Source of the DNA: Naegleria gruberi
Lineage: Eukaryota
DNA length: 64,000 bases
Direction: 5' to 3' (one strand)
Assembly (NCBI GenBank): GCA_000004985.1
Contig: GG738845.1
The position numbers and the translations under genes were made by a program. Positions within the stretch are counted from its first letter, which is position 1. Each line of letters starts with the position of its first letter. A model generated the notes under the pieces. It ran no database searches. It was not told the DNA's origin and saw only the letters and a list, made by a program, of their open reading frames with translations. Positions 1 through 20,120 of this stretch are shown one piece after another.

Positions 1-3000
1 ATTTGATGATTTTAAGAGCTTTTGTTTTGTTTTGCTTGGTATCAAATGCTTTAAATACTGACCCAAAGGCACCTTCTCCAATTTTAACTAAATCCTTATA
101 ACGAGAAAGTGGATTAAATGCATTTTGTGAGTCTGAACTCTTGATAGAGGAAAAACTCATGAGTGGTGTGAAATGTGCACTTTCTTGTGATGGGAAATCA
201 CTATGAGAGGGTATTGTTACTTCCTCAATTAGTTCAGTTTCCTCTGGTTGTTCTTGTTGGTGTAGGGTTTGTTTCTTCTTTTGTAACACCACCACAACAG
301 CAACCACTACAATGACCACAATAACAATTACCACCACAATAAATAAAGCGACTAGTATGCCAACAATTAGTCCAATAGTTGCTCCATCATCCACAGGAAT
401 ATTCTTATTGCCTTGACTTGATTTTGGTGATGCAGTAACGGAAATTGTTGGAGTTATTACAACGTTATTATCAATAACTGAAAAGGTTGTAAAATGTTTG
501 GTGGCACAAGTAATTTCATAGATATTTGCTGATTTTGACTTGATAATTGTTTGAATACCCAAGGTTGACCAAGTATTGGAGTTCGTATCATAGTAATTAC
601 ATGATAGATTAGAAGATTTTGTTTCAATATTATCAAAAACAATGTCTACTGTTTGATTTAGATTTGCAACTGAGACTTGTGCCAAGTTATCTATTTTTTG
701 GATTGAAAGACTTATTATTTTGCTTACAATATTCGAATCTGTCTTCTTAGTCGTTGATTTGAAAATAAAACATGATCTCTTGGAAGACAAATCCACTTGA
801 GAAGCAAAATTTGATGGGAATTTCACAGTAACATCTGAAATTTGATTTTGTTTTGAGTTAAGTTCTTGAGAGGAGAACAGGAATTGTTTTCTTACTGTGG
901 TTTCTCCATCAGTTGACTCCACAACATTTTGAGTTATTGAACCTGGGCCTGATAAAAGAATTTCAGTCATTTGAAGAGATGTTTTGAATTGATCAAATAA
1001 TATCAAATTCTGTGATTGACCAATTTCAACTAATTCATTCAACTCACTCAAATGAACTAAATCTATCATATAAGGAAGCGTCTTCTCACTATAATAAGGT
1101 AAATTACTTGTAATACTATTGACTGACCATGAGATCCATTCTTTCAACTCATCTAATTTATCTATTTTCTTATCAGAAAGGTATAAAAGTTTGTAAGTTT
1201 TGTGGAGTGGAGGAATGATGAGTGAAATTAGTTTATCATCCACATTGTAACCAACAGATCTAATGTCAGATAGAACTGATAAAATATCAATCAAGGTTGC
1301 TCTAACACTTGAAAGTGATGTCAGTTGGGATGATTGGGATTCCAAATAGGTCAACAAGAAATTCAATTCTTGTAACATTTCAAGACCTGAAGTTCTATTT
1401 CCTTTCATATAAGAATATTCGTCTTTGAAGTAATTCAACGGATCAGATGTTGGATTGGAAACACTTGTTAAATTTCTCATGAATTCTCCAACGTTTCCAT
1501 TTCTGCTTAAAACTTTCACCTTAATGGAAGAATTTGGAAGAATGGTAGAGAATTTCATGGCTACTTTCTTTTTCAATGTATTTGAAATGATGAATTTACG
1601 TTTCAAATCCATATTAAATTCCATAAGAATCATTAATCGATTCTCAATCATGTGATCACAAGAAATTGTTAAATAACTATTGGAAAGTAAATTAATATCA
1701 CAAGAAACTCTTGGTGAGCGTTCAGAGGTAAACGAGTAAGAGTTTGAAGCAACTACATCAACTCCATTCAGAGCTTGAATCTCGAAAATATAATTCTCCT
1801 CTTGATAGAACAAATCACCACTCATCCAGATGGAAGTTCTCAAATAATTATCACTTTGAGCTAAAATATTTGATTTAAGAGAATCACTCGATTGTAATCT
1901 TCCTTGACTAACCTTCCAGTTATAGTTTGAAAAGTTTCCAGTTATTTCTGCCTCTATGTAACATCCAGAATAGCTCAATGAATTCCAAGCTTTTGTAATC
2001 TTCACAGTGATTGGTTTTGATTTGGTTATTTCGAAGCGACCAACAACTGATCCACTTCCCAAATTATCATCTGAAGTACTAGCTTGAATTTGATAAACTC
2101 CAGGAGTAAGAGAACCTGCAGACAATTTAGCAATATTGGAATTTACACTGAATACCGATTGAGGAATTGTTGTTAATTTTGTGTCATTTTCAACCCTGAA
2201 AAGACTCCAATAGAAAGAAAGTTTTGAAAGTCTGAAGGAGGATTCGTTTTCAGCTGTAACCTCAATGGTGAAACTGTCATTTTGCGAATTCTTTGTGTCA
2301 ACCCCAACGAATGACAATTTAAGATCCACGCTTGTGAATGGTTTGTACTGGAGAGTGACAGTGATATCTCTGGAAGTGGTGGAGTCTTTGGCAGAACACA
2401 ACAAAGAAGCTTCACTCTCTTCCAAATTGGCATCTGAAAAGACTCTTATCATATGCTTATTCTTGAGAACATTGGTAAAGACATTTCCATATAAAGAAAT
2501 AGATTGGGATGGAGCAAAAGTTTCAATTTCTAGAATACATTCAAATCCAGAACATGAAATTATTCTAGTATCCAAAATATCATTGAAAAATTCAATGTTT
2601 GGACCTGTGGAGGTGATTTTCAAATCTAGTTTTGAACTTGATTTTGAATTGTTCATCCAGTTGTTGGTATTTAAAACTAAACTAATAGATGATGTCGATG
2701 ACAAATAGGTTTTTGGTATGATCAAAATATCTCTATTCAATCCAATAAATTCTCCAGTTGACCCACAAGTTGGACATGTCCATTTATAGTCAATTGATTT
2801 GGCAAACCTGTAATTGGAATCAATACTTGGTCTAACAATCAGATCAGAAGAAGAGGGAATAGTGGAATATAGTTTGGTTACCTTGATACTTGTGGAAGCG
2901 TAAGTTTTCGAATTGGATTTTGCTTCTTCCATACTAACATAAACTGAAATATTCGAATTTTTCAACTTGAGAATATCTCCAGTTTCTAAAATAAAGTTAT

Positions 3001-6000
3001 AACCTAAATAGATTGTTAAATTAGTGTTCCACACACAGATAGGTTGTTCGCCCAATTTCAATAGAGAAGTAGAATCAAATAAACTTTCACATTTTCCATT
3101 AAACATCTCAAAGGATTCATCCCTTGCAATAATGGTTTGAACTAGTGGCGCTAGAGTAATGGATTGATAATTCATACTGAAAACGTAATTTTCACATTCC
3201 TTTCCAATATATCCATTCTTACAAGTACATGTATGTGGACCTGAACAATTACCATTTCCAGAACAAACACCTGGATCAATTTCAACCTTTTGATAACACT
3301 TGAAATATTCGCATTTAGAACCAGCATATCCATTTGAACATTGGCAGACGTCCTTATCTACACATTGACCTTTCAAATTTGAACAAACACTTGCATTATT
3401 ACTATCGATTCCATAACAAGAAGTCAAGTTACAATTATTCCCAAACCATCCAGACTGACATCTACAATCATTAATGCCTACACATGTTCCCTTTCCATTA
3501 CAAACAGCAGTCTTATCAGAGGTTATTCCATAGCAATATGGATAATCACATCTCAAACCTCCGTATCCATCAGTACAGATACAATTTCCAGGACCATTAC
3601 AAGTACCATTATTGGAACATGCCTTTTTTCCATAACAATCGAATAATTCACATTGATTTCCATAGTAACCTTCAATACACGTGCAGTTATTGGGAATTCC
3701 ACAAACTCCATTACCACTACAGACACTTCTATTATTACTCATTATACCATAACAATATGTGATATTGCAATTACTTCCAGTCCAGGAATTTGCTGTACAA
3801 ACACAAGAGTTTGGAAGATCACAATATCCTTTTCCTGCACATACACCAGTTGAGTTTGCTTTAACTCCAAAACAAATTGGGATACATTCAGTTCTTTCTT
3901 GATTGAAATCATATCCATCCTCACAATAGGGCGTCAGTGATCTTATTGAATTATCTACTATATAATAAATCTTATTAGTTTCAAAGTCAGCTGTCAATTT
4001 TACAATTGAAGTACTAGCAATGGAATATCGTTCACCATTCTTTGGATATCTCCAAATATTATTTTCAGTGCTTGATATATAAACTATTGTATCACCGTTT
4101 GGCATAATTGCTAAATCCTTTGTCGAAGACTCTGTTTTATAGACAGTCTCAACATAATTATCACTTCTGAGAGTTCTTATGAGATTGTTGCCATTGTCTA
4201 TATAGTAAATTTGATCAGTCCCATTTGCAAAGGCAGCACCAACACAATAAAACATGTATGTTTCATTAAGCGGTTGTACTATTGGTAGATCTGGACCTTT
4301 TACAGTATATTGAGTACCAATTAATGAACTGGCTCTTCCTTTGTAAATTGTTTCTACAGTAGAATAGGCCCAAAAACTATGGATAAGCCTGTCATCAGAT
4401 GAAACTTTCAAATACTCAAGGGTATAATCAATATGTGTATGACGAGATGGTACATCTTCACCATATCCTATAAGTGTTCTTCTTCTTCCATCTGTGAGAT
4501 TGTGAAATGAAATTCCTTCGTTTTCCATAACAAGCAAATTACCATCTGGTAATAGAGCCAGATCCATTGGATAAATCATCTTTGCTTCTGTTGAGAGTAA
4601 GCCAGGAATTGGCTTCTTTCCATACAAATCAGAGTTTCCAGCAACAATGGTTATCTGATTATTCTCAAATTTCTTAACGAATCCATTAAAGTTATTTTCA
4701 GTTATATAAATAGCATCATTAATGACGATTGCCTTATTAGGGCAAGATAAACCACTTATTGGCAAAGTTGTGGTTGCACCTCCAATCACAGTTTGTTGAA
4801 TAGAATTTGCTTGACAATTTGCAACATAAATGGTATCATTGGCATGCACATATAAACCAGCTTTTGATGAAATTCCGCTCAAAACCGTTACCAAAGTGTT
4901 CGAAACTAGGTGCCTTAACCTTCCACCTTCAATAAACACGATACTTCCATTCGAAAGTACTCCAATAGCTGATGGCTCATTGATAGAACTCAAAGCTGGG
5001 ACAAATTCACCACTATATTCATTTTGACCATTACCAGCGATTGTGATTATTGTGCCATTAGTCAAAATTTTTCTAATTCTGTAATTCATACTGTCTGCTA
5101 TATAAATTTCATTATTTGAGGATAATGCAATTCCTTTCGAATAAATTGATGCCTCAGTAGCCAAAATACCATCTCCATTATTTCCTGAAACATAGTTTCC
5201 TGCAATTGTGTAATATCTTTGTTCACTCCAAACAAACTTTCGAATAACTTGGTTCATGGTATCAGAAACTAAGAAATCACCATTAGGATAAAGTGCAAAC
5301 GAAGGCGTTGAATAAATGGCATCACCAGCAACAATTTCTAAAGTTCCATTCTTGTGAACTTTGTAAATGTATCTACTATAGTGAAAATATAAGAGATCTC
5401 CATAAGCAGCAATTCGTTTAGGATAATCGAAGGAATATGTGCCGAATTTACAATCTGAAAGTTTAGATCCTTCTGAAACAATCTTACTTGAGTAAGGAGA
5501 GGATAATAAGTAAACATTTCCATCGGTTGCTATCTTTCTAATAGATTTTGAATCAGAGAAAAAAAGTTCTCTTGTTTTTGGATTATACACAACATCGAGT
5601 GGTGAATCTAAATTGGCTTTGCTAGGTTTCACACCATCTCCATAATAGGATGTACTTCCATCAGGAGCACCAACAACTTTAGAATAATTACCTTTCGAAA
5701 GTGAAACTTTTACAATTGCATTATTGGACGAATCTGCAATGTATAGCTCATCATTTTGGTTGATTGTTGCATAGTATGGATTTTTCAAGGAAAGAGAGCT
5801 ATTTTCATTGCCTGCAATTGTTGTGATAATACTAGTGTTCGAAATCAGACGAATCTTATTATTCCCCGCATCACAAATAACTAATTCATTCTTATAATTC
5901 ATGAAAACACACATTGGTGCAGTGAGTAAGGCATTAATCGCCAAACCTCCATCACCAATAAATCCAGAAGTCCCATTTCCTGCCATAGTAACGACACTTC

Positions 6001-6724
6001 CGTTTTGAAAAATCTTTCGAATACAATTATTTCCACTATCTGCAACATAGAGCTCACTTTCGTCTAAACTAAATGAAAGCCCTGAAGGTCTATTGAATAG
6101 AGCACTCAATCTTGTTTGATTATTGTCAAAACCACTCACACCATCTACACCAGCATAGTTATCAATAATTCCAGTGCTTGAATTAATTACTCTGATGACA
6201 TGCCTGTCAAAGTCGGTAAAGAAAATGTCACCTCTTTTGTTCATAATAATATCTAGTGGAGCAGAAAGGGTGGAATTAGTGGCAATTTGACCATTTCCAT
6301 AACCTCCTACCTGTCCATTACCTGCAATATTAATAACTTGTTTAGTTTCGAATATATATTTCTTAATCGTGTGAGTACCCAATTCTGTAAAGTAAATATC
6401 CATATTCTTATCCAGTAAAATTCTTGTAGGATTGACAATAGAAGGATTATCAAGTGAAGTAATAATACCATCGTTATCAATTATTCTAATCTTGGTATTA
6501 GAAGAATCTGCTATTGCCATGAAGAAAGGTTTCCTATTCTTGCCGCTGTCCCACATGGCAAATCCAGTTGGGAAATTCAACACAGACTTCTCAGCAGGTA
6601 CATTATCACCCAACAAATTTGTACCTACAACAAGTTCATTTCTATAAAGTATTCTAGCGGAAAGTGTTGTGTGTACAAGAATTGAAATTAGAACCAACAA
6701 AACTACCAGCACCGTTCGAAACAT
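1..6724 (-). CDS. Receptor-type protein kinase, N-terminal ~2240 aa. Domains in order: signal peptide, NHL-repeat beta-propeller, 6 EGF-like modules, large extracellular repeat region, single TM, start of kinase domain. Kinase C-terminus lies beyond the window start.
   Basis: Continuous minus-strand ORF from the ATG at 6724-6722 runs off the window start. It is absent from the ORF track because it has no stop in the window. Hand translation gives: signal peptide MFRTVLVVLLVLISILVHT; more than 12 NHL-type repeats (e.g. LSAPLDIIMNKRGDIFFTDFDRHVIRVI, FNRPSGLSFSLDESELYVADSGNNCIRKI, LTAPMCVFMNYKNELVICDAGNNKIRLI); six Cys-rich EGF-like modules of the form CxxxGxCxxxNxCxCxxGxxGxxC encoded at about 3900-3230; a hydrophobic TM segment IGLIVGILVALFIVVVIVIVVIVVVAVVVVL at about 370-290; then RYKDLVKIGEGAFGSVFKAF...KALKIIK, i.e. 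kinase subdomains I-II (GxGxxG and the VAIK lysine) at about 105-1. Confidence 0.75.
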   Translation of the reverse strand, partial: MFRTVLVVLLVLISILVHTTLSARILYRNELVVGTNLLGDNVPAEKSVLNFPTGFAMWDSGKNRKPFFMAIADSSNTKIRIIDNDGIITSLDNPSIVNPTRILLDKNMDIYFTELGTHTIKKYIFETKQVINIAGNGQVGGYGNGQIATNSTLSAPLDIIMNKRGDIFFTDFDRHVIRVINSSTGIIDNYAGVDGVSGFDNNQTRLSALFNRPSGLSFSLDESELYVADSGNNCIRKIFQNGSVVTMAGNGTSGFIGDGGLAINALLTAPMCVFMNYKNELVICDAGNNKIRLISNTSIITTIAGNENSSLSLKNPYYATINQNDELYIADSSNNAIVKVSLSKGNYSKVVGAPDGSTSYYGDGVKPSKANLDSPLDVVYNPKTRELFFSDSKSIRKIATDGNVYLLSSPYSSKIVSEGSKLSDCKFGTYSFDYPKRIAAYGDLLYFHYSRYIYKVHKNGTLEIVAGDAIYSTPSFALYPNGDFLVSDTMNQVIRKFVWSEQRYYTIAGNYVSGNNGDGILATEASIYSKGIALSSNNEIYIADSMNYRIRKILTNGTIITIAGNGQNEYSGEFVPALSSINEPSAIGVLSNGSIVFIEGGRLRHLVSNTLVTVLSGISSKAGLYVHANDTIYVANCQANSIQQTVIGGATTTLPISGLSCPNKAIVINDAIYITENNFNGFVKKFENNQITIVAGNSDLYGKKPIPGLLSTEAKMIYPMDLALLPDGNLLVMENEGISFHNLTDGRRRTLIGYGEDVPSRHTHIDYTLEYLKVSSDDRLIHSFWAYSTVETIYKGRASSLIGTQYTVKGPDLPIVQPLNETYMFYCVGAAFANGTDQIYYIDNGNNLIRTLRSDNYVETVYKTESSTKDLAIMPNGDTIVYISSTENNIWRYPKNGERYSIASTSIVKLTADFETNKIYYIVDNSIRSLTPYCEDGYDFNQERTECIPICFGVKANSTGVCAGKGYCDLPNSCVCTANSWTGSNCNITYCYGIMSNNRSVCSGNGVCGIPNNCTCIEGYYGNQCELFDCYGKKACSNNGTCNGPGNCICTDGYGGLRCDYPYCYGITSDKTAVCNGKGTCVGINDCRCQSGWFGNNCNLTSCYGIDSNNASVCSNLKGQCVDKDVCQCSNGYAGSKCEYFKCYQKVEIDPGVCSGNGNCSGPHTCTCKNGYIGKECENYVFSMNYQSITLAPLVQTIIARDESFEMFNGKCESLFDSTSLLKLGEQPICVWNTNLTIYLGYNFILETGDILKLKNSNISVYVSMEEAKSNSKTYASTSIKVTKLYSTIPSSSDLIVRPSIDSNYRFAKSIDYKWTCPTCGSTGEFIGLNRDILIIPKTYLSSTSSISLVLNTNNWMNNSKSSSKLDLKITSTGPNIEFFNDILDTRIISCSGFECILEIETFAPSQSISLYGNVFTNVLKNKHMIRVFSDANLEESEASLLCSAKDSTTSRDITVTLQYKPFTSVDLKLSFVGVDTKNSQNDSFTIEVTAENESSFRLSKLSFYWSLFRVENDTKLTTIPQSVFSVNSNIAKLSAGSLTPGVYQIQASTSDDNLGSGSVVGRFEITKSKPITVKITKAWNSLSYSGCYIEAEITGNFSNYNWKVSQGRLQSSDSLKSNILAQSDNYLRTSIWMSGDLFYQEENYIFEIQALNGVDVVASNSYSFTSERSPRVSCDINLLSNSYLTISCDHMIENRLMILMEFNMDLKRKFIISNTLKKKVAMKFSTILPNSSIKVKVLSRNGNVGEFMRNLTSVSNPTSDPLNYFKDEYSYMKGNRTSGLEMLQELNFLLTYLESQSSQLTSLSSVRATLIDILSVLSDIRSVGYNVDDKLISLIIPPLHKTYKLLYLSDKKIDKLDELKEWISWSVNSITSNLPYYSEKTLPYMIDLVHLSELNELVEIGQSQNLILFDQFKTSLQMTEILLSGPGSITQNVVESTDGETTVRKQFLFSSQELNSKQNQISDVTVKFPSNFASQVDLSSKRSCFIFKSTTKKTDSNIVSKIISLSIQKIDNLAQVSVANLNQTVDIVFDNIETKSSNLSCNYYDTNSNTWSTLGIQTIIKSKSANIYEITCATKHFTTFSVIDNNVVITPTISVTASPKSSQGNKNIPVDDGATIGLIVGILVALFIVVVIVIVVIVVVAVVVVLQKKKQTLHQQEQPEETELIEEVTIPSHSDFPSQESAHFTPLMSFSSIKSSDSQNAFNPLSRYKDLVKIGEGAFGSVFKAFDTKQNKTKALKIIK

Positions 6725-6779
6725 TTTTTGAATGAGTTGAAATGTACCACACCACCAATGTTTTTTTTTGTCTGTTGGC

Positions 6780-6793
6780 AAGACGGCCGTCTT
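6780..6793. promoter_or_regulatory. Perfect 14-bp GC-rich palindrome AAGACGGCCGTCTT, about 55 bp upstream of the receptor-kinase ATG, inside a 940-bp divergent intergenic region.
   Basis: Read directly from the sequence; the palindrome is self-complementary. It is GC-rich in an otherwise AT-rich spacer shared by divergently transcribed genes (6724 minus, 7665/7731 plus). Any regulatory function is inferred only. Confidence 0.3.
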
Positions 6794-7730
6794 CTTAGTT
6801 TGTCCTGATCTACCATTAGTTGATACTGAAAGCTCAACATGTCATGTGAGAAAACTTAATTGGAATTACAAAAAGGCATTTTAAACATAAATATAATTTG
6901 ATATGAGAGTTGACAGCAACACTGTTACAGATCTCTTCTTGCCAAGTCCAATATTAAATATTCTACATGAAATATTTATTGCTTACCTTTAGATGATTAC
7001 CATAGGATAATTGTGGTTAGATAGGTAATTTTATATCTCATCTTCCACCAATAGAAGATGGTACAGGGTATCAAGTAATACAGGTGAGGTACCAAGTATA
7101 TACCAAGTATTTAGTTGGATTGAAAAAGAATCCTCCATAGGAACCTATTGTCGATAAACTTGGTATAATAAACTTTACAATAACAGTTGCGCACCAGACT
7201 AGTCTTCATGATTACAATATGTTTGATTGAAATTTACACAAAAGCAATACAGTATCTGTTATTCTTATTGCTTTTGTTGAAAGCAAAGTAATTGTGTAAG
7301 AGTTAATAATCTTGACAGGAACTGCACCCACACAAAACAATCTTTGATAGCAGGTTGTAGTTTCTTCATCAACAACTGCTGTGCATCACGAAAACAACTG
7401 GGCTATTAGGCAGACTGTGAGGATAACAAATCCATTTACTGTGTTTATGGTAAAACCATTACCGTTCCTTATTTCATTTTAAAATTTGGTGTCCATCAAA
7501 GCAGATTCCAGTAGGCTCAGTATCATTCTACAGCTGAGAAAATAACTTTCAAAAACAGTAACATTCCTTCCTTTTCAAATATCCAAATACTGTAAACAGA
7601 TAAAAATGGACCATAGGTAAAGACCAGTAGCTTTCGCCCTTTCACAACCAAGTAACCAAGCAACATGTTCCACATATCTGTCGATGCACAGACGCACGGC
7701 TTATCTGTGAAAAACCAAACAAGAAAAAAG

Positions 7731-8843
7731 ATGCAATCTTCTACTTTAGCTATTCTTTTGCTTTTCTGTTTGGTTGGTTGTGTTACTTGCGCCAGTAATA
7801 CGACTGTAAGAGCTTACATCCTCGATATTCAATCAGAATATGAAAAGATAGACACTCTTGGGCAACGTCTCACAAAGGCGATTGATATGTTAAATTTTGC
7901 AAACATCAACTCGACCTTAATTCCTCAAATTGTTCAAACAAGAGCAGCTCAATTGAAAAAATTAACAACTGCTAGAAGCATGCTCGCTCTTGAAATGTCT
8001 GTATTGAGCAATCAATGTAATATGTTTGGAGGAGATGACTGCACCGTTCCTACATGTTCATATCATGGAAAATATATAAGTAATAATCAAACAGCTAAAT
8101 GTGTATGTGATCAAGATTGGACTGGGTTAAACTGTTCTGTTCCAATATGTTATTCCATTCCTGCAACAAACAGCTCTGTGTGCTCAGGCTCTGGTACATG
8201 CATCTCCAATAATACATGTCTCTATCCAACTCCATCAAACAACCTTGTTGTTGACACCATTAGAATGTATGCGAATGGAACTGTTGCAAGAAGTTGTAAA
8301 GAATATCTCTCAACATTTAATGAGAGTGGACTCTATTGGATCAAACCAGATAATAACTATCCAAGTTTTGTAGTTCATTGTGAGCAGAAATTCAATGGTG
8401 GAGGTTGGATTTTAATTTCATCAAGAAACAAATCAATTCCTCCAAAATATTCTGATGTTGTAAAGCCACTCAATGATGGTTCGTCAATGGCAGATGATAA
8501 ATGGGCCATTTTCAGAAATGCCAATCCTGACTTAATGTGGAAAGATTCAGATCGTGATGAGTATAGTGTAACAAATATTTTGGGATGGAAAAATGGAGCA
8601 AATTGTAAAGTATTAACAACAAAACTAACTGATCTGTTGCTTGCTCATAAGGAGAACACTGGCTGTACAATGTCAGGAAGTGATTATTGCTTGCTTGGTG
8701 ATACTAGATTCGGTATGACTCCTTGTGCATCATGTGAGGCAACATACACAGCACCAACTTTGATTTGGAAAGAGTGGAAGTTCAAAAGCTATTTTTGGAA
8801 TGATTCTCCTGAACTATCAAAAGCAGATATTTATTTAAGATAA
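7731..8843 (+). CDS. Secreted protein with coiled-coil-like N-terminal region, two tenascin-type EGF modules and a C-terminal fibrinogen-related (FReD-like) domain.
   Basis: The ORF is 7665-8843; the second ATG at 7731 gives a clean signal peptide MQSSTLAILLLFCLVGCVTCA. EGF-like region: CTVPTCSYHGKYISNNQTAKCVCDQDWTGLNCSVPICYS...CSGSGTCISNNTC. The segment SCKEYLSTFNESGLYWIKPDNNYPSFVVHCEQKFNGGGWILISSR matches the conserved N-terminal core of fibrinogen C-terminal domains (C..SG.Y.I.P....F.V.CD....GGGW..IQ.R; compare tenascin-C [47 protein letters not shown]). The rest of the domain is divergent. Confidence 0.65.
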   Translation: MQSSTLAILLLFCLVGCVTCASNTTVRAYILDIQSEYEKIDTLGQRLTKAIDMLNFANINSTLIPQIVQTRAAQLKKLTTARSMLALEMSVLSNQCNMFGGDDCTVPTCSYHGKYISNNQTAKCVCDQDWTGLNCSVPICYSIPATNSSVCSGSGTCISNNTCLYPTPSNNLVVDTIRMYANGTVARSCKEYLSTFNESGLYWIKPDNNYPSFVVHCEQKFNGGGWILISSRNKSIPPKYSDVVKPLNDGSSMADDKWAIFRNANPDLMWKDSDRDEYSVTNILGWKNGANCKVLTTKLTDLLLAHKENTGCTMSGSDYCLLGDTRFGMTPCASCEATYTAPTLIWKEWKFKSYFWNDSPELSKADIYLR

Positions 8844-10686: not shown

Positions 10687-13600
10687 TTAAACATCTTCCC
10701 ATTCGCCCATTATTTCATCATCTTCAAATTCATCTGCAATTTCAAGACCACTTGTTGTATTTCCTAAAAAGAATACAATTTGAAATGCATACTTGTTAAA
10801 GTATTTTCCACTTTGTTCTATTATTGTTGGTTTGTAAAATGATGGATTCAGCAAATCACAAAATTCCTCTGAATCAAAATAAAGCGACGTTCCACTTTTA
10901 CGTTCTTGATAATTCTTCAATTCAATTCTATTATACTTTCTAATTTGAATACTTTCTCTATCAAATGATTCATTTGCAATTAAATATTTAATTTTAAAAA
11001 TGTCAGTGGATTTAAACACTTCTAATAGATCAATAGAAAATAATCCACTTTTTCTTGATATAGGTGTCAGGTAGATATTAATATTATTTCCAAATACGTT
11101 AAAGAGATTGGAGGAGAAATTGTAATCCTCCAATACTTCAAGTGGAGTGAGAATAGAAATATTATGATGACTCATTGGTATATTCTTGGATAATTGTCTA
11201 TCAATCCATGGATGTACTCCATAGAGTGGTGATGCTGAACTCATTGAGAGAGTATTATTTAAAGATGGTGATTTCTCCAATAACTTCATACATACAACAA
11301 TCTTGTAGTCATAAGCATCATTTTTGAATTCTGTGGAGAGAATGGAAAAATGATTTTGTGAAATATTATCCAAGGCATGCTGAAATTTGTGGGAGTGTAC
11401 AGAGTAATGATTTGAATAGTAATAAGGGAAAAAAGCAACATCAACTCTCAAATATTCCAATACTGAGGAAGAATCATCTTCATGTTGTGTCGATTGTAAA
11501 TATAATGAACATGTTGCCAATGTATTATCTTCTCCACTATGAATAGTCATAAACCAATTAAATCCAAATGCTTTGAAAGTTTCAGAATGAACCTTTTTGT
11601 ACATTTCCCATTTGATTGGTTTTGAAATTTCAATACATGTTGTGAATGTATTCTCTCCTTTCCAACAATCAGGTATTGGAGTATATTGTGGAATGACATT
11701 ATTTATACCAGTACCACCCTCGCCAGTGTATAGAAAATTATTGTTATATGCCTTAGCAACCATCAACCCAAAAGGTCTACTCAAAGTAGAGAACCTTGTA
11801 TTACTTGTAAACTGAGAGATACTGTCATGTGAAAATGATTGATGTAGATTAATCTTATTTTCTAGACATTTCTTCATAAATTTATCAACATATTTTTTAA
11901 CACCAGATAAATCTAATAAATCCTCAGCAATTCTTGCAAAATGCTTAGCAATAATGTGTGGAACATTAAAATCCAATAAAATACTCAATGCTAAAAAGGT
12001 ATCCACTGTTGAATTCAATGCAATGAATACTGGAAGTGCCTTAGATAGAGAATAGATTAATGCTTCTCTATCAAATGCGAAATTACCATTCTCAATCTTG
12101 TTGGCGAAATATTTTAACAATTTTGTAAAGGACGATCCGTTCATATAGTCAAAGCTAAATACTGATTGTAAAGTATAGCATAATATAGTGAATCTATATT
12201 CATCTTTGATGGGTAAATCCAACAAGCGACTCATATATAAATTCAATTCCACTAATTTTCTCTCCTTCAATAGATTTGGAATAAGAGTTGCATTCAATTC
12301 TTCAAAGAGATGATTGGCACTCTCTACTTTGATACTCTGTAAATTTTCAGTAATAGTTTTGAGAGCACGTTCCATATTGAATTTTCTTTCCTTAATCTTG
12401 GTACAGAAAAAGTGAAAATCTCTTTCATGTTCCAACAATGAGATTTCATTGATATCCCTGAATTGAGGACAATCCACTAAAAGTAATAATGTTAATTGTT
12501 TCATGGATTTAAATGTAGAGAGTAATTGATTGGTGAGTTGAGAACAACCGTTAAAATAGATGGATTCAATAGGAGAATCATTAGTACATAATTCATTCAC
12601 AATTTCATCTTGAATGGATGATTGTTTCAATTTTAAAACTCTTAATTGAGTTAATGATTGAATATTCTTAACAAATCCCATTTCAGATCCTGAAGGATTT
12701 TCAAAAGATGAAATTGACAAGGTATATATTCTAAGTGGAAGTATCAAATGATTTGGAAATGGAACTGACATGTCTAAAATATTCAGTGTCTCTAGAGTTG
12801 TAAACTCTAATAGACTGATGGCATGATCATATACCATTGATAAATTTCTAAGTTTCTTCTTATTGGTTAGTTTCTTTACAATTTCAGATGTGATCAAATT
12901 ACCAGTGATTGATTCAAGATGAGGTAAAGGAACAATCACCTTTTCTAAATTGTGATTTTCTATCGATGCATCCAAGTGAAGTGATTTAACATTTTGACAT
13001 TTGGAAAGGAATTCAAAATTCATTTGATTTTCAAATCCAGTCACTGAAAGTTCTTTGAGGGACCTTCCAACAAGTACTGGAAGTAAAATGCCTGCTCCTT
13101 CCACTAAATCACAGGATACACTTTCTAAACGATTAAAACTTGAGGTGTCGGAAAGTTTCTTAATTAAATCTTTTGAAAATGAAACTCTTGTCATGAATAA
13201 TAGCTTTAGTTTGTTTAAATTTGGTAAAGAACAAATTGCCTCTAATAATGAATTATTATTTTTGGTAGATTCTATTCCAACAATAAATAAACTCAAATCT
13301 GTCAAATGTTCAACAATTTTTCCAAAAGCATTATTTGGAACAGTTATATCTGCTCTAACAAATAAAGAAAGTGATTTCAACTTGAGAGGTTCCTTAAAAG
13401 TAGTGAAAATTGAATTAGTTAACTGAACATCAGGTATCTCTGGATACATGAAATGGAACGAAGAAAGTTTAGGTAAATTTTTCATTAAAAATTGTGCATT
13501 CTTTTCTGAAACACCTCTCAAACGTAATTCCATTAAATTTGGGCATTGGTTTGGAATGTTTTTTAAAACTGCTGTTGGTAATATGTAATCAACTACTAAC

Positions 13601-14169
13601 TTCTCCAATTTTGAAGGAAATGTTACCTTGATATCCACTGAAATACCATTTCCTATTAAAGTTAATTGTTTCAAATTGGAAAATGATGAAAGTGAAAGGT
13701 TTTCAATATGAAAATCAAAACCACACATCAACAACTCTTCAAGACTATTCACCATTTGAAGCTTTTCATCAATGGCATCTTGTAAAAAGAATCCAGAAAA
13801 GGCATCACACGCCAACAAATCAAGCTTTCTAATTTTACAATTTAAAGATCGGAGAATTTTAAAGAATGATAAATCATCAATTTCTTCTCTAGCCTGAATT
13901 TCATCATTATCAATACTTTCTCTACTATTAATTTCTTGTAAATTTACTAATTTTGATAGATAATACTTGTTAATATTTTCCAATTGACCAGCTTTAACTC
14001 GGTAGGGAAGAATATACGAAGTTTTGTGGGTAATCCAATAATTCCAAATTAATTTGTTAAAATTATGATTGGTAGACTTGAGAGCGATTAAATGATGTTG
14101 TGGAATGAAGGGAAGGAGATGATCAAACAAGACTTCATTGGGAATATCCGAGAGGTGAATGTTGATCAT
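10687..14169 (-). CDS. F-box / leucine-rich-repeat protein (1160 aa) with a C-terminal region containing a possible MATH/TRAF-like domain.
   Basis: ATG at 14169-14167. N-terminal F-box-like motif IHLSDIPNEVLFDHLLPFIPQHHLIALKSTNHNFNKLIWNYW. The central ~400 aa is a long run of L-x-x-L-x-L LRR-like units (LKSLHLD, LRNLSMV, LRVLKLK ...). The C-terminal segment HSETFKAFGFNWFMTIHSGEDNTLATCSLYLQST resembles a MATH core (S..F..GG..W.l.lyP.G....lSlyL); this last call is tentative. Confidence 0.7.
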   Translation of the reverse strand: MINIHLSDIPNEVLFDHLLPFIPQHHLIALKSTNHNFNKLIWNYWITHKTSYILPYRVKAGQLENINKYYLSKLVNLQEINSRESIDNDEIQAREEIDDLSFFKILRSLNCKIRKLDLLACDAFSGFFLQDAIDEKLQMVNSLEELLMCGFDFHIENLSLSSFSNLKQLTLIGNGISVDIKVTFPSKLEKLVVDYILPTAVLKNIPNQCPNLMELRLRGVSEKNAQFLMKNLPKLSSFHFMYPEIPDVQLTNSIFTTFKEPLKLKSLSLFVRADITVPNNAFGKIVEHLTDLSLFIVGIESTKNNNSLLEAICSLPNLNKLKLLFMTRVSFSKDLIKKLSDTSSFNRLESVSCDLVEGAGILLPVLVGRSLKELSVTGFENQMNFEFLSKCQNVKSLHLDASIENHNLEKVIVPLPHLESITGNLITSEIVKKLTNKKKLRNLSMVYDHAISLLEFTTLETLNILDMSVPFPNHLILPLRIYTLSISSFENPSGSEMGFVKNIQSLTQLRVLKLKQSSIQDEIVNELCTNDSPIESIYFNGCSQLTNQLLSTFKSMKQLTLLLLVDCPQFRDINEISLLEHERDFHFFCTKIKERKFNMERALKTITENLQSIKVESANHLFEELNATLIPNLLKERKLVELNLYMSRLLDLPIKDEYRFTILCYTLQSVFSFDYMNGSSFTKLLKYFANKIENGNFAFDREALIYSLSKALPVFIALNSTVDTFLALSILLDFNVPHIIAKHFARIAEDLLDLSGVKKYVDKFMKKCLENKINLHQSFSHDSISQFTSNTRFSTLSRPFGLMVAKAYNNNFLYTGEGGTGINNVIPQYTPIPDCWKGENTFTTCIEISKPIKWEMYKKVHSETFKAFGFNWFMTIHSGEDNTLATCSLYLQSTQHEDDSSSVLEYLRVDVAFFPYYYSNHYSVHSHKFQHALDNISQNHFSILSTEFKNDAYDYKIVVCMKLLEKSPSLNNTLSMSSASPLYGVHPWIDRQLSKNIPMSHHNISILTPLEVLEDYNFSSNLFNVFGNNINIYLTPISRKSGLFSIDLLEVFKSTDIFKIKYLIANESFDRESIQIRKYNRIELKNYQERKSGTSLYFDSEEFCDLLNPSFYKPTIIEQSGKYFNKYAFQIVFFLGNTTSGLEIADEFEDDEIMGEWEDV

Positions 14170-16850: not shown

Positions 16851-18132
16851 TTGATTACCAATAAAATTACAACAAAGGTAATTGTGAATAAATAGCTCCA
16901 AATGGTAGCTGCTTGTGATGTTCTTGAAATATCAACATTAATTGATTTGGTATCTGAAAGTGTTTGATAAGTTGCCTTAAGAGAGGCTGAAGATGCAGCT
17001 GTTGCTGACAACTGAACTGAGAAGGAAGCAACACCTTCACTTGCCACTTTAGATTTATCACCAGTTATTGTAATACCAGATGATCCTACCATTTCCAAAG
17101 TGATAGTTCCTGAACCTGATTTGAGAGTATTTCCACTCGAATCCAACATTGAGACAGTTGCAGTGAATGCTGCACCACTATTCACAGAGGATGGAAGTGA
17201 GAGTTTGATACTGGAAGGTTGGGTTGGGTGACTGTGGTGGAGGTTTCACATTTACTACCAGTGTATCCTGAGAAGCATGTACACAAATCTTGACCACTAC
17301 ATGTTCCTTTACTGACAGTAGTACTGGAAGGTGCAATGCCATAACAAGTGAATTGAGATTGAGTGGCAGTCACTGTAAACTCAGCAGATGTCAATGAAGG
17401 AGCAGACATAAATTGGGTATTGATAGAAGCGAATAATTTAACAGTACCAGAGCTTGGTGCAGTGATTTCTGGACCTTTCATAATACCATTAGAAGCCATG
17501 GAAGAGTGTAAAGAACCAGGGTAGGTTAGATCAATTAAATAATTTCTTGGAACAACATTTCCATCACTATCGACAATTCTAACTTCAGGTGTGAATTTGG
17601 ATCCAGCCACAACAAGTGAAGGAGCAATAATAAGCAATTTTGAAGCAGATTTGGAACAAGCGCAATAATTTTGTACATCAACTGAACAGGAGGTAATGCT
17701 ATTCTTACATGAGAGTTTGGTAGTGTAATCAGTGGTATCAAGAATTAAGGAATTAGAGGCACTGAAACATTCTCCAACATTGTACCTGGTTTGTTCTTTA
17801 GAAAATTCAGCCACCTTGACAGAGGTATCAGTGGATGTTGTTTCAATAATGTAGGTGTGGTAGTCACCTTTTGGTGAAACCAAGAGATCCATTGCACTGA
17901 CATAATAACCAGTTGGACATTTGGTAGGACATTTAACTTCAATTGAGAAGAGGAAGGATAAGGTTACACTTCCTCCACATCTAGGACAGGAACATGTGGC
18001 TTGGGATGCTCTCTTTTGAAATAAATTGACTGGTTGGGGAATGTTGGAAGTATCACTTGTGGCAACAGTCAACTCGTAAGCAAAAGTGAAGAGGAATAGA
18101 CAAATGAGTAAAATTATATTAGAAACTTTCAT
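16847..18132 (-). CDS. Secreted, probably GPI-anchored, adhesin-like protein with an EGF-like module and repeated beta-sandwich-like segments. The reading frame is interrupted at ~17183 by a frameshift or sequencing error.
   Basis: ORF 17182-18132 starts with ATG at 18132 and the signal peptide MKVSNIILLICLFLFTFAYELTVA, contains the EGF-like module GTCSGQDLCTCFSGYTGSKCE, and ends ...SNSHFHPL-stop. The adjacent ORF 16847-17185 has no ATG (the track M is GTG). It continues the same repeat type (SGAAFTATVSML vs SAEFTVTATQSQ) and ends in a hydrophobic, GPI-signal-like tail WSYLFTITFVVILLVIN. The 16-nt junction cannot be an intron. Confidence 0.5.
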
Positions 18133-18545: not shown

Positions 18546-18567
18546 TGAGTGTGGGACTGATAAAATT
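18546..18567 (-). repeat. Duplicated copy of the tRNA 3' terminus (TCCCACACTCATGA) immediately downstream of the tRNA, flanked by T-runs (TTTT and T8).
   Basis: On the minus strand the tRNA end ...TCCCACACTCATCA is followed by AATTTTATCAG, then TCCCACACTCATGA, then AATTTTTTTT. Both runs are read directly from the sequence. The T-runs look like Pol III terminators; the origin of the duplicate is unknown. Confidence 0.4.
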
Positions 18568-18658
18568 TGATGAGTGTGGGATTTGAACCCACGCCCTTGC
18601 GGAACACGGTATTAATCATACCTTAACGTGTCGTCTTAGACCACTCGACCAACTCACC
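18568..18658 (-). tRNA. tRNA-Leu (anticodon AAG) with an 11-nt intron at the canonical 37/38 position.
   Basis: Minus-strand sequence GGTGAGTTGGTCGAGTGGTCTAAGACGACACGTTAAGG[TATGATTAATA]CCGTGTTCCGCAAGGGCGTGGGTTCAAATCCCACACTCATCA. The acceptor stem is GGTGAGT/ACTCATC. The D-loop AGTGGTCTAAG is typical of class II tRNAs. The anticodon stem is ACACG/CGTGT with loop TTAAGG|C. There is a long variable arm, and the T-arm is GGGTTCAAATCCC. Without the intron it is collinear with human tRNA-Leu-AAG. The intron lies at about 18620-18610. Confidence 0.8.
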
Positions 18659-18773
18659 ATCTGTAAATTTTATAAATATTACTATTATGTTGATTTTTGA
18701 GGAGATATTTTTACGTTGGTCAAAAATGAAATTAAATATTACCGTATTAGAAAGTAGGCGGGAAGGTTTGAAA

Positions 18774-18950: not shown

Positions 18951-20120
18951 ATGCAAGCTCAAGTCAATTTTAATCAAATCAAGTCATCAATCTTTGTTCC
19001 TTTGGATAAGAAGAAATCTGATCAACATTGTTCTCTCCTTTTCAGCAATCTAATTGGTACTGCTTTACAATTCAGAGACAACAAGTACACATACTGTGGA
19101 TCATATGATCTTTCACAGTGGTTGGTTCTCTGCTTTAATACTATGGTCAAACAAGATGAGAAGTTATTTGCAGATATTGTTATCCCATTGGTAGCATATA
19201 TTTCGATTGTTGACGATGCATGTGATGAGAAGATTACAGACATCTCTATTGAAGAGATGAAATCACATTGCATGATATTTAGAGGTGAATCTGTACAAGC
19301 AACAAACCCAGCTCACAAGATGGGAAAACTCGTCTATAATTTGATCAAAGACAGTAGATTCGATGGAATTAGAGGAAAGATTTTAGAATTCTTGACCGTT
19401 GGAACCAATCTCATAGAGAAGGCAAAGAATGAATGCGAAAATAATGGACTTGTCTCTGAAGAAACCTTGCTTGCCTTTTTGAAAGAAAGAAGAGTCGACT
19501 CAATGTCCTCTCTTTTCTTTACTATTAATAATTTCTTTAATGACATTCCAGAGATCGATACATGCGATCACGTCATTGAATATAACCACTTGGCATGTGA
19601 CATTATCAGTTTGTTCAATGATGTTGCCTCAATCGCTAAAGATGCCAAGAAGGTTGTTAACAATTATATCATTTTGAATAAGGGCTTGAAAGAGGGCATG
19701 TCATACAGCCAACTTAAACAACTCCCAGTTGAAGCCTTTGATTCATCCCTCAATGAAGTATTGGAATTAATCAAAGAGAAATTGCAACAAATGGAAACAA
19801 TCAAATCCTCCAACCCAGACAACTCCAAACAATTTGAATCCATCGATGAAGTGATGAAAGGATATTGTACTTGGTGCATCATTTCAAAGAGATTCCAACA
19901 TTCTAACCACCTCCTTCCTGAATACCATTCCAAAAAATCAGTACTCAAGGCAATGATTGAAACTGTGTTAATGCCATTCCTCAAACCTTGGTCTGATAAT
20001 GATATGCTCACCTATCTTGATGATATTGAAAATTCCATGAAGAAATCCTCCTTTTCAAGCATATTGGACTCATTTGCCTACTCTATCGGAAAATTTTGCT
20101 CTTTTTCAATCACTAATTAA
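18951..20120 (+). CDS. Class I terpene synthase, microbial-type (trichodiene-synthase-like fold), 389 aa, intronless.
   Basis: ATG at 18951. Aspartate-rich motif IVDDACDE (DDxxD) at about aa 86-93. NSE/DTE-type second metal-binding motif FNDVASIAKD (N-D-x-x-S-x-x-x-D) about 135 aa downstream, the spacing expected for class I terpene cyclases. Size (~45 kDa) and alpha-helical composition are also consistent. Confidence 0.8.
   Translation: MQAQVNFNQIKSSIFVPLDKKKSDQHCSLLFSNLIGTALQFRDNKYTYCGSYDLSQWLVLCFNTMVKQDEKLFADIVIPLVAYISIVDDACDEKITDISIEEMKSHCMIFRGESVQATNPAHKMGKLVYNLIKDSRFDGIRGKILEFLTVGTNLIEKAKNECENNGLVSEETLLAFLKERRVDSMSSLFFTINNFFNDIPEIDTCDHVIEYNHLACDIISLFNDVASIAKDAKKVVNNYIILNKGLKEGMSYSQLKQLPVEAFDSSLNEVLELIKEKLQQMETIKSSNPDNSKQFESIDEVMKGYCTWCIISKRFQHSNHLLPEYHSKKSVLKAMIETVLMPFLKPWSDNDMLTYLDDIENSMKKSSFSSILDSFAYSIGKFCSFSITN

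Follow-up and report, generated by a model that had tools for sequence, protein, structure and literature searches.

Two adjacent divergent genes of Naegleria gruberi: a probable NHL-EGF receptor kinase and a probable secreted stalk-plus-head protein with a shortened, bacterial-type fibrinogen-related head

The window analysed here is the whole of a 64,000-nucleotide (64-kb) stretch of the Naegleria gruberi contig GG738845.1 (assembly GCA_000004985.1). Its GC content is approximately 30-37% and it is densely packed with genes that are single-exon open reading frames (ORFs). Two divergently oriented genes lie at its start, a large gene on the minus strand, which runs off the window, and a small gene on the plus strand. 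In an initial annotation these were taken for a teneurin-like receptor kinase and a tenascin/angiopoietin-like protein. We consider it probable that they are two adjacent genes with no demonstrated link, one for a receptor kinase with NHL repeats, epidermal growth factor (EGF) modules and a GPS-like motif, the other for a secreted stalk-plus-head protein whose head is a shortened fibrinogen-related domain (FReD) of bacterial type. The features of the small gene, the large gene and the spacer between them are listed below.

7731..8843, plus strand: NAEGRDRAFT_61599 (XP_002683287, EFC50543, UniProt D2UX13), 370 amino acids, secreted, single exon, on a 1.56-Mb contig
7731..7796, plus strand: predicted signal peptide, residues 1-22 (MQSSTLAILLLFCLVGCVTCAS), read off the sequence
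7803..8024, plus strand: helical, heptad-bearing stalk, residues ~25-98 (single-sequence AlphaFold and heptad register)
8016..8219, plus strand: EGF modules, one complete with six cysteines (Cys 96-135) and one truncated after its fourth cysteine (Cys 140-163), from cysteine positions
8286..8840, plus strand: C-terminal head, residues 186-370, a fibrinogen-like domain of short form and bacterial YCDxxxxGGGW type, with YLR as its last residues (Pfam, NCBIfam, PDB and family searches)
2..6724, minus strand: coding sequence of the NHL-EGF-GPS-like receptor kinase, a type I membrane protein; first ATG at 6724, 2241+ amino acids, 3' end cut by the window
6656..6724, minus strand: predicted signal peptide, residues 1-23 (MFRTVLVVLLVLISILVHTTLSA), read directly off the sequence
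3935..6637, minus strand: NHL-repeat beta-propeller region, residues ~30-930 (Pfam NHL, 1.4e-18)
3194..3874, minus strand: six tandem six-Cys EGF modules, residues 951-1177 (cysteine map, C-x10-C-x5-C-x5-C-x-C-x8-C)
608..3193, minus strand: ectodomain of ~860 amino acids without an assigned family, rich in Ser/Thr/Asn (no Pfam family at E<=10)
470..607, minus strand: GPS-like motif, residues 2040-2085, LSCNYYDTNSNTWSTLGIQTIIKSKSANIYEITCATKHFTTFSVID (Pfam GPS, 19.4 bits, E 0.0015)
284..376, minus strand: predicted single transmembrane helix, residues 2117-2147, and after it the stop-transfer sequence QKKKQ, read off the sequence
2..100, minus strand: first part of a protein kinase, subdomains I-II, comprising the glycine loop GEGAFGSV and, within ALKIIK, the beta3 lysine (Pfam Pkinase matched over positions 1-33 of 263)
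6725..7730, no strand: intergenic spacer between the divergent genes, 1006 bp long when measured from one annotated start codon to the other; the 940 bp of the initial annotation is the distance from the upstream in-frame ATG at 7665
6780-6793, in the spacer: 14-bp palindrome AAGACGGCCGTCTT
7090-7111, in the spacer: tandem decamer TACCAAGTAT(A/T)

The ORF of the small gene spans 7665-8843, with the deposited model starting at 7731, and its product is 100% identical over its full length to an N. gruberi 'predicted protein'. This protein would consist of a signal peptide, a heptad helix, EGF spacers and a globular C-terminal head. Single-sequence AlphaFold places helices at residues 4-56 and 63-98 of the stalk with low confidence (pLDDT 55-74), and a constant heptad register runs across residues ~25-90. 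The stalk is probably an oligomerisation coiled coil. Two EGF modules had been annotated, but only the first is complete. By Pfam the EGF region matches EGF_TEN (7e-6), and EGF_Teneurin at 23.1 bits, below the cutoff of 24.3. The truncated module shares a C-x10-C-x5-C-x5-C pattern with the EGF units of the large protein and with N. lovaniensis proteins.

The head is recognised by Pfam Fibrinogen_C (PF00147), which scores 24.9 bits against a cutoff of 22 over profile positions 3-50 of 221 only, and by the bacterial NCBIfam model NF040941 (GGGWT_bact, fibrinogen-like YCDxxxxGGGW domain), which is matched in full, at positions 1-46 of 46 (residues 188-229 of the small protein), with 39 bits where 30 are required. 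In a phmmer search of the PDB all 47 matches to the head are fibrinogen chains, angiopoietins, FIBCD1, FGL1 or intelectin-type lectins, and they cover the same ~50 residues. A profile of the family described below matches XEEL (1.3e-13) and fibrinogen beta (4e-13) in the PDB, over profile positions 9-66 only. Aligned by hhalign with six canonical FReDs, the family gives a probability of 98.7%, with columns 12-94 matching columns 2-80 (of 214), and this match reaches the conserved tryptophan of the FReD 'EFWLG' region. The marks of the A subdomain are present in the head, namely the C...YC(D/E)x4GGGW motif, with C189 and C217 at the conserved disulfide positions.

The signatures of the P subdomain, FST-D-x-D-N-D, GGWW, C-x-x-NLNG and the D-x-D calcium site, are absent from the head sequence and from the family consensus. 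The head is ~185 amino acids long, short of the ~220 of a full-length FReD, and its alignment ends at 50/221 (Pfam) or 80/214 (hhalign). Because the similarity ends at these points, the P motifs are missing and the domain is short, the head is a non-canonical FReD.

An AlphaFold model of the head built with a 40-sequence alignment reaches a pLDDT of 86.8 and a pTM of 0.86, with a floppy loop at model residues 159-168; the single-sequence model of the head reaches a pLDDT of only 41, and the alignment-based model was used. The fold is fibrinogen-like, and the top Foldseek matches are all FReDs, at TM-scores of 0.35-0.47. In both fold and family membership the head is a true but shortened member of the fibrinogen superfamily, of bacterial type. 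The fibrinogen C-terminal domain of the initial annotation therefore stands at the level of the superfamily, with Pfam above its cutoff and FReDs as the structural matches, but not as a canonical domain, since the P subdomain is missing.

In canonical FReDs the P subdomain comprises ~95 residues and contains the calcium site as well as the ligand pocket, which takes up acetylated sugars or peptides. Judging by how far the alignment extends, we infer that the head has retained the A subdomain together with the greater part of the B-subdomain sheet; the ~140 aligned residues are about the size of the A and B subdomains combined. The P subdomain appears to have no sequence counterpart, and a segment of ~55 residues seems to stand in its place. 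This segment carries conserved residues of its own, H-x-E-x3-C-x5-D-Y, of which C, D and Y are invariant and H and E are present in at least 90% of sequences.

The family to which the head belongs was collected by an exhaustive HMMER search of 1.84 billion cluster representatives, which gives 275 proteins at E<=1e-3 (150 listed). Among the 150 matches listed, at least 58 are full-form members that match over at least 110 residues, with E-values on rescoring of 1e-13 to 1e-47. The family domain is ~190 amino acids long, lies nearly always at the extreme C-terminus and ends in Y-V/I-R; the Naegleria query ends in YLR. The invariant or near-invariant positions, in the numbering of alignment A1, are C15, C43, G50-G51-W52, W84, C118, H132, E134, C138, D144 and Y145; converted to the numbering of the small protein, H132, E134, D144 and Y145 are H317, E319, D329 and Y330. 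The Naegleria head has these conserved residues and the C-terminal position, and is a member of this short fibrinogen-like family. The remaining matches hold a module of ~50 amino acids alone, sometimes in tandem, which Pfam reads as the N-terminal part of Fibrinogen_C and of the fibrillar-collagen C-propeptide. Outside animals this module seems to serve as a repeat in its own right.

The usual view of FReDs is that of modules for lectins and clotting in animals (PMC11401434, PMC8878817). The named members of the present family are bacterial, in Pseudoalteromonas luteoviolacea (WP_063367195), in Marinomonas mediterranea and in an alphaproteobacterial metagenome-assembled genome (MAG), and other members carry myxobacterial-type Cys-rich repeats. 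A locus scan seeded with six closer bacterial sequences and covering one genome per bacterial species gives at least 536 loci with the motif, only some of them with the full 190-residue form. Among the lineages that stand out are Myxococcota, Bradymonadia, Pseudoalteromonas, Bacteroidota and Bdellovibrio-like bacteria. The partner domains in bacteria are lectin or adhesin modules (H-type lectin, LamG, RbmA-like FnIII) or RCC1 repeats. Because NF040941 is matched in full and the named members are bacterial, the premise that fibrinogen-related domains are essentially metazoan, on which the initial annotation relied, is out of date for this module.

Further paralogues of the head are found in N. 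gruberi, at least three in number (NAEGRDRAFT_72070, _68173 and _73810), all on other contigs. In a neighbour-joining tree the four N. gruberi sequences form a single clade together with one eukaryote-like sequence. Such a pattern would be consistent with a single gain from bacteria, or a single retention, after which the gene was duplicated and its domains were shuffled in the Naegleria lineage. RCC1-like repeats with a C-terminal head are common to NAEGRDRAFT_73810 (P0272) and a Bradymonadia MAG protein (L001 16-3567, plus strand); this shared architecture hints at transfer of a whole gene and not of the domain alone.

Two observations on individual database proteins are recorded here. Three large proteins (P0122, P0124, P0129) have six to nine tandem ~50-residue fibrinogen-A/collagen-C-propeptide-N modules, one of them with Dictyostelium-type CTDC repeats. 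The 1695-residue metagenome protein P0136 (JGI) has a near-full FReD of canonical type (Pfam 4-195/221), a short form and five LamG-type domains. If P0136 is bacterial, complete fibrinogen-like domains would also occur outside animals.

Lectins with a coiled coil and a FReD use an oligomerising stalk to present several weak binding heads (PMC8878817). Ficolins, angiopoietins and numerous FReD lectins of invertebrates share this stalk-plus-head design, the stalk being a coiled coil or collagen, and the small protein is built in the same way. By analogy, its most likely role would be that of a secreted, oligomeric, multivalent binding protein, a lectin or an adhesin. The binding site would probably be formed by the conserved H/E/D/Y cluster, and a metal ion may be needed for binding, as it is for intelectins and FReDs. 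Bacterial members of the family that also carry lectin or adhesin modules are counted in support of a binding role.

The frame of the large gene is open on the minus strand from 6841 to 2 in the six-frame translation, which is 2280 codons, or 2241 from the first ATG, running off the window start. The initial annotation of this frame as longer than 2200 amino acids is confirmed, as are its signal peptide, six EGF modules, single transmembrane helix and kinase start, from Pfam, the cysteine map and direct reading of the sequence. A signal peptide at the N-terminus and a transmembrane helix at the C-terminus make the protein type I. With a custom NHL hidden Markov model made from homologous sequences, 11 blades are recognised within residues 37-852. 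The spacing leaves room for ~16, the gaps between blades being blade-sized, and so the '>12 blades' initially reported is plausible for a real NHL region, but the exact number is not fixed. Searches with the full protein in a collection of 5.8 billion proteins find hundreds of bacterial NHL proteins at 25-32% identity. In the EGF region Pfam matches EGF_2 (5.9e-15) and EGF_Teneurin (PF23106; 8e-13, 48.7 bits against a cutoff of 24.3), and EGF_TEN (PF25024) reaches 63.4 bits, just below its cutoff of 65.

Between the EGF modules and the membrane the stretch initially given as ~850 amino acids is present but measures ~940, and it ends in the GPS-like motif, which had not been mentioned. Residues ~1790-1960 look helical when judged by eye. 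BLASTP of the post-EGF ectodomain against the N. lovaniensis paralogue P0050 finds no meaningful similarity, barring a 55-residue stretch at E 0.03, and the last 1066 amino acids of the large protein have zero matches in the 5.8-billion-protein collection. Neither this query nor the full protein finds an identical or near-identical entry there; the same collection does hold the neighbours NAEGRDRAFT_61599, _45265, _61604 and _61605. The large gene may be without a deposited protein model. Its N. lovaniensis relatives (P0016, P0050) have NHL repeats, EGF modules, a transmembrane helix and a short tail, and are without a kinase.

The GPS-like motif reads C-x-YYD...W-S-x-x-G...C-x-x-x-H-F-T-T-F-S-V-I. 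Its Pfam alignment spans profile positions 2-45 of 45, and the motif ends 31 residues ahead of the transmembrane helix. In adhesion G-protein-coupled receptors (GPCRs) and polycystin-1 the GPS has four usual cysteines and an H-L-T/S triad. A GAIN/GPS domain in the large protein is at best probable, and the motif may sit in a GAIN-type fold as it does in those receptors; such a fold consists of a helical subdomain A and a beta-sandwich subdomain B, the latter containing the GPS. One N. lovaniensis NHL-EGF paralogue has a REJ domain, in keeping with ectodomains of a polycystin/REJ-like kind among these genes.

At the other side of the membrane, the last 38 residues align in a phmmer search of the PDB with the N-lobes of a Giardia CDK (1.3e-4) and of MST3/STK24 (5e-3). 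The protein has the elements of a receptor kinase of family PF00069: a signal peptide, an ectodomain, a single transmembrane helix, a GxGxxG loop and the beta3 lysine. Within the limits of the window, these elements support a type I receptor-kinase layout that includes NHL and EGF modules. The NHL propellers of such a receptor would bind something extracellular, and the signal would pass to the cytoplasmic kinase, of Ser/Thr type.

The spacer was inspected for shared elements. Both the palindrome and the direct repeats of the initial annotation are present, at chance level: the window holds 16 perfect 14-bp palindromes against 7.9 in mononucleotide shuffles, for which reason the spacer palindrome carries no weight. 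Nearly all of the palindromes in the window are AT-rich, that at 6780 being the only GC-rich one. The idea that the palindrome or the direct repeat acts in regulation was rejected.

The initial annotation had joined the two genes into a ligand/receptor or matrix/receptor module, and the corresponding reading is a co-regulated module resembling angiopoietin and Tie, in which a tenascin/angiopoietin-like FReD ligand or matrix protein signals through the NHL-EGF receptor kinase. The genes do diverge around a shared 1-kb spacer, both proteins are extracellular and have the same EGF subtype, and the small protein pairs a stalk with a FReD-like head as angiopoietins do. However, adjacency is the sole link, and there is no shared regulatory element above chance. 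The EGF subtype is uninformative because it is common in Naegleria, being found also in the ORF at 17185-18132 and in N. lovaniensis proteins. The head is without the P subdomain, the receptor-binding part in angiopoietins, its three N. gruberi paralogues sit on other contigs, and the N. lovaniensis NHL-EGF paralogues are without a kinase. A functional link between the two genes is unsupported, a guess from adjacency, and we regard a co-regulated module as very unlikely. Hardly any credence is given to a bolder form of it, in which the large gene would encode a self-cleaving GAIN/GPS 'adhesion receptor kinase' (a single-pass heterolobosean Ser/Thr kinase without a deposited model) with its neighbour as a multivalent fibrinogen-type ligand. 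If true, this would be an independent non-animal counterpart of angiopoietin-Tie, built from a bacterial-type domain, and the tethered-ectodomain device of adhesion GPCRs and polycystin would be coupled to a kinase.

The head itself has been given two other readings. Its similarity to fibrinogen could be a short YCDxxxxGGGW motif shared with an unrelated fold. The Pfam, NCBIfam and PDB sequence matches span only ~46-58 residues, and many bacterial and amoebozoan-like proteins carry the ~50-residue module alone or in tandem, with differing continuations. The hhalign match and the Foldseek matches of the model extend the likeness to the fibrinogen fold, and a mere shared motif is highly improbable. 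The head could also be a metal-dependent enzyme or a toxin-like effector, with the Naegleria copies as recent bacterial imports for feeding on or competing with bacteria. The segment standing in for the P subdomain brings together H132 and E134 (at least 90%) with D144 and Y145 (invariant), predatory or social bacteria (Myxococcota, Bradymonadia, Bacteriovorax, Pseudoalteromonas) are well represented in the family, and the RCC1-plus-head arrangement is common to the Bradymonadia protein and NAEGRDRAFT_73810. The stalk-plus-head design and the lectin and adhesin partners stand on the side of binding, and we think an enzyme or effector unlikely.

The preferred reading, of a receptor kinase beside a secreted protein with a shortened fibrinogen-type head, has several points to be set against it. 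Foldseek TM-scores of only 0.35-0.47 mean that the fold differs substantially from canonical FReDs. With the canonical sugar and calcium site missing, lectin function is not simply transferable, and the conserved H/E/D/Y residues could equally be a metal or a catalytic site. Most family members and representatives are metagenome proteins, and the neighbour-joining tree has no support values. In the large protein the GPS-like match lies under the Pfam cutoff (19.4 against 22.5 bits) and lacks two of the four cysteines normally present, and its triad is H-F-T, not H-L-T/S. A sequence search of the PDB with residues 1741-2111 found no GAIN relative, only noise. The catalytic core of the kinase (HRD, DFG, APE) falls beyond the window start, so that only the ATP-binding start lies inside.

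Three other ORFs of the window are exact N. gruberi proteins, and they are listed here with a tRNA-like gene.

10690-14169, minus strand: NAEGRDRAFT_45265, 1160 amino acids, single exon, no Pfam family at E<=1e-3
17185-18132, minus strand: NAEGRDRAFT_61604, with a teneurin-type EGF module at 21 bits, just under the cutoff of 24.3
18567-18659, minus strand: tRNA-like gene, 93 nt, anticodon undetermined (ARAGORN)
18951-20117, plus strand: NAEGRDRAFT_61605, terpene-synthase-like (Pfam Terpene_syn_C_2, 28.2 bits against a cutoff of 23.7)

The tRNA-like gene may encode a tRNA with an intron or one of unusual form. That related genes are clustered locally was considered and rejected; the neighbours are ORFs without a Pfam family, the terpene-synthase-like ORF and a PPR protein.

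Both genes are new combinations of known modules, and neither is extraordinary alone. What is new is a eukaryotic clade from outside the animals within a bacterial-type fibrinogen-like family that is recognised but uncharacterised, here in an animal-like architecture of stalk plus head. A literature search returned nothing relevant on the YCDxxxxGGGW domain, on GAIN domains in Naegleria, on these genes or on a Naegleria fibrinogen-like protein. The small gene provides a compact relative of FReDs in a distant protist, on a scaffold like that of animal ficolins and angiopoietins. Its head is a small, well-predicted outgroup for the origin of the animal domain and its pocket, and for the ancestral binding site. 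The large gene adds a possible GPS-bearing receptor kinase.

Teneurins share with the large protein the teneurin-type EGF modules and NHL blades. They are type II proteins in which EGF modules precede the NHL repeats, and they have a YD shell, a toxin-like C-terminus and no kinase, whereas the large Naegleria protein is type I, has NHL before EGF and continues into a kinase. Pfam finds no YD or Rhs match in it. The label 'teneurin-like' fails on topology, on domain order and on the missing YD shell, and describes modules of the architecture only. With the GPS/GAIN receptors, adhesion GPCRs and polycystin-1/REJ proteins, the large protein is compared for its 45-residue GPS-like motif, which spans the whole profile at a score below the Pfam cutoff and lies just outside the membrane; those receptors have a domain of seven or 11 transmembrane helices, whereas the large Naegleria protein has one helix and then a kinase.

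Tenascin consists of an N-terminal heptad assembly domain, an EGF array, FN3 repeats and a canonical FReD. The small protein has no Pfam match to FN3, only 1.7 EGF modules and a non-canonical FReD, and does not have this layout. In angiopoietins the coiled coil leads directly into a canonical FReD, which binds Tie2 through its P subdomain; in the small protein EGF modules separate the helical stalk from the head, and there is no P subdomain. 'Tenascin/angiopoietin-like' is only an analogy of architecture.

For the head, canonical FReDs (fibrinogen beta and gamma, ficolins, angiopoietins, tenascin FBG, FIBCD1) are ~220 amino acids long with P motifs, which the ~185-residue Naegleria head does not have. 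Intelectins (human intelectin-1, 4WMQ; Xenopus XEEL, 4WMO) are ~280 amino acids long with their own calcium-dependent diol-binding region, and do not match the head family beyond residue ~66. In NF040941 proteins such as P. luteoviolacea WP_063367195 the whole ~190-residue C-terminal domain aligns with the head at ~30% identity, with the same conserved cysteines, GGGW, H-x-E, D-Y and Y-V/I-R end. The bacterial domain is joined to RbmA-like FnIII, H-type lectin, LamG, RCC1 or myxobacterial Cys-rich repeats, whereas in Naegleria it is joined to a signal peptide, a heptad helix and EGF modules.

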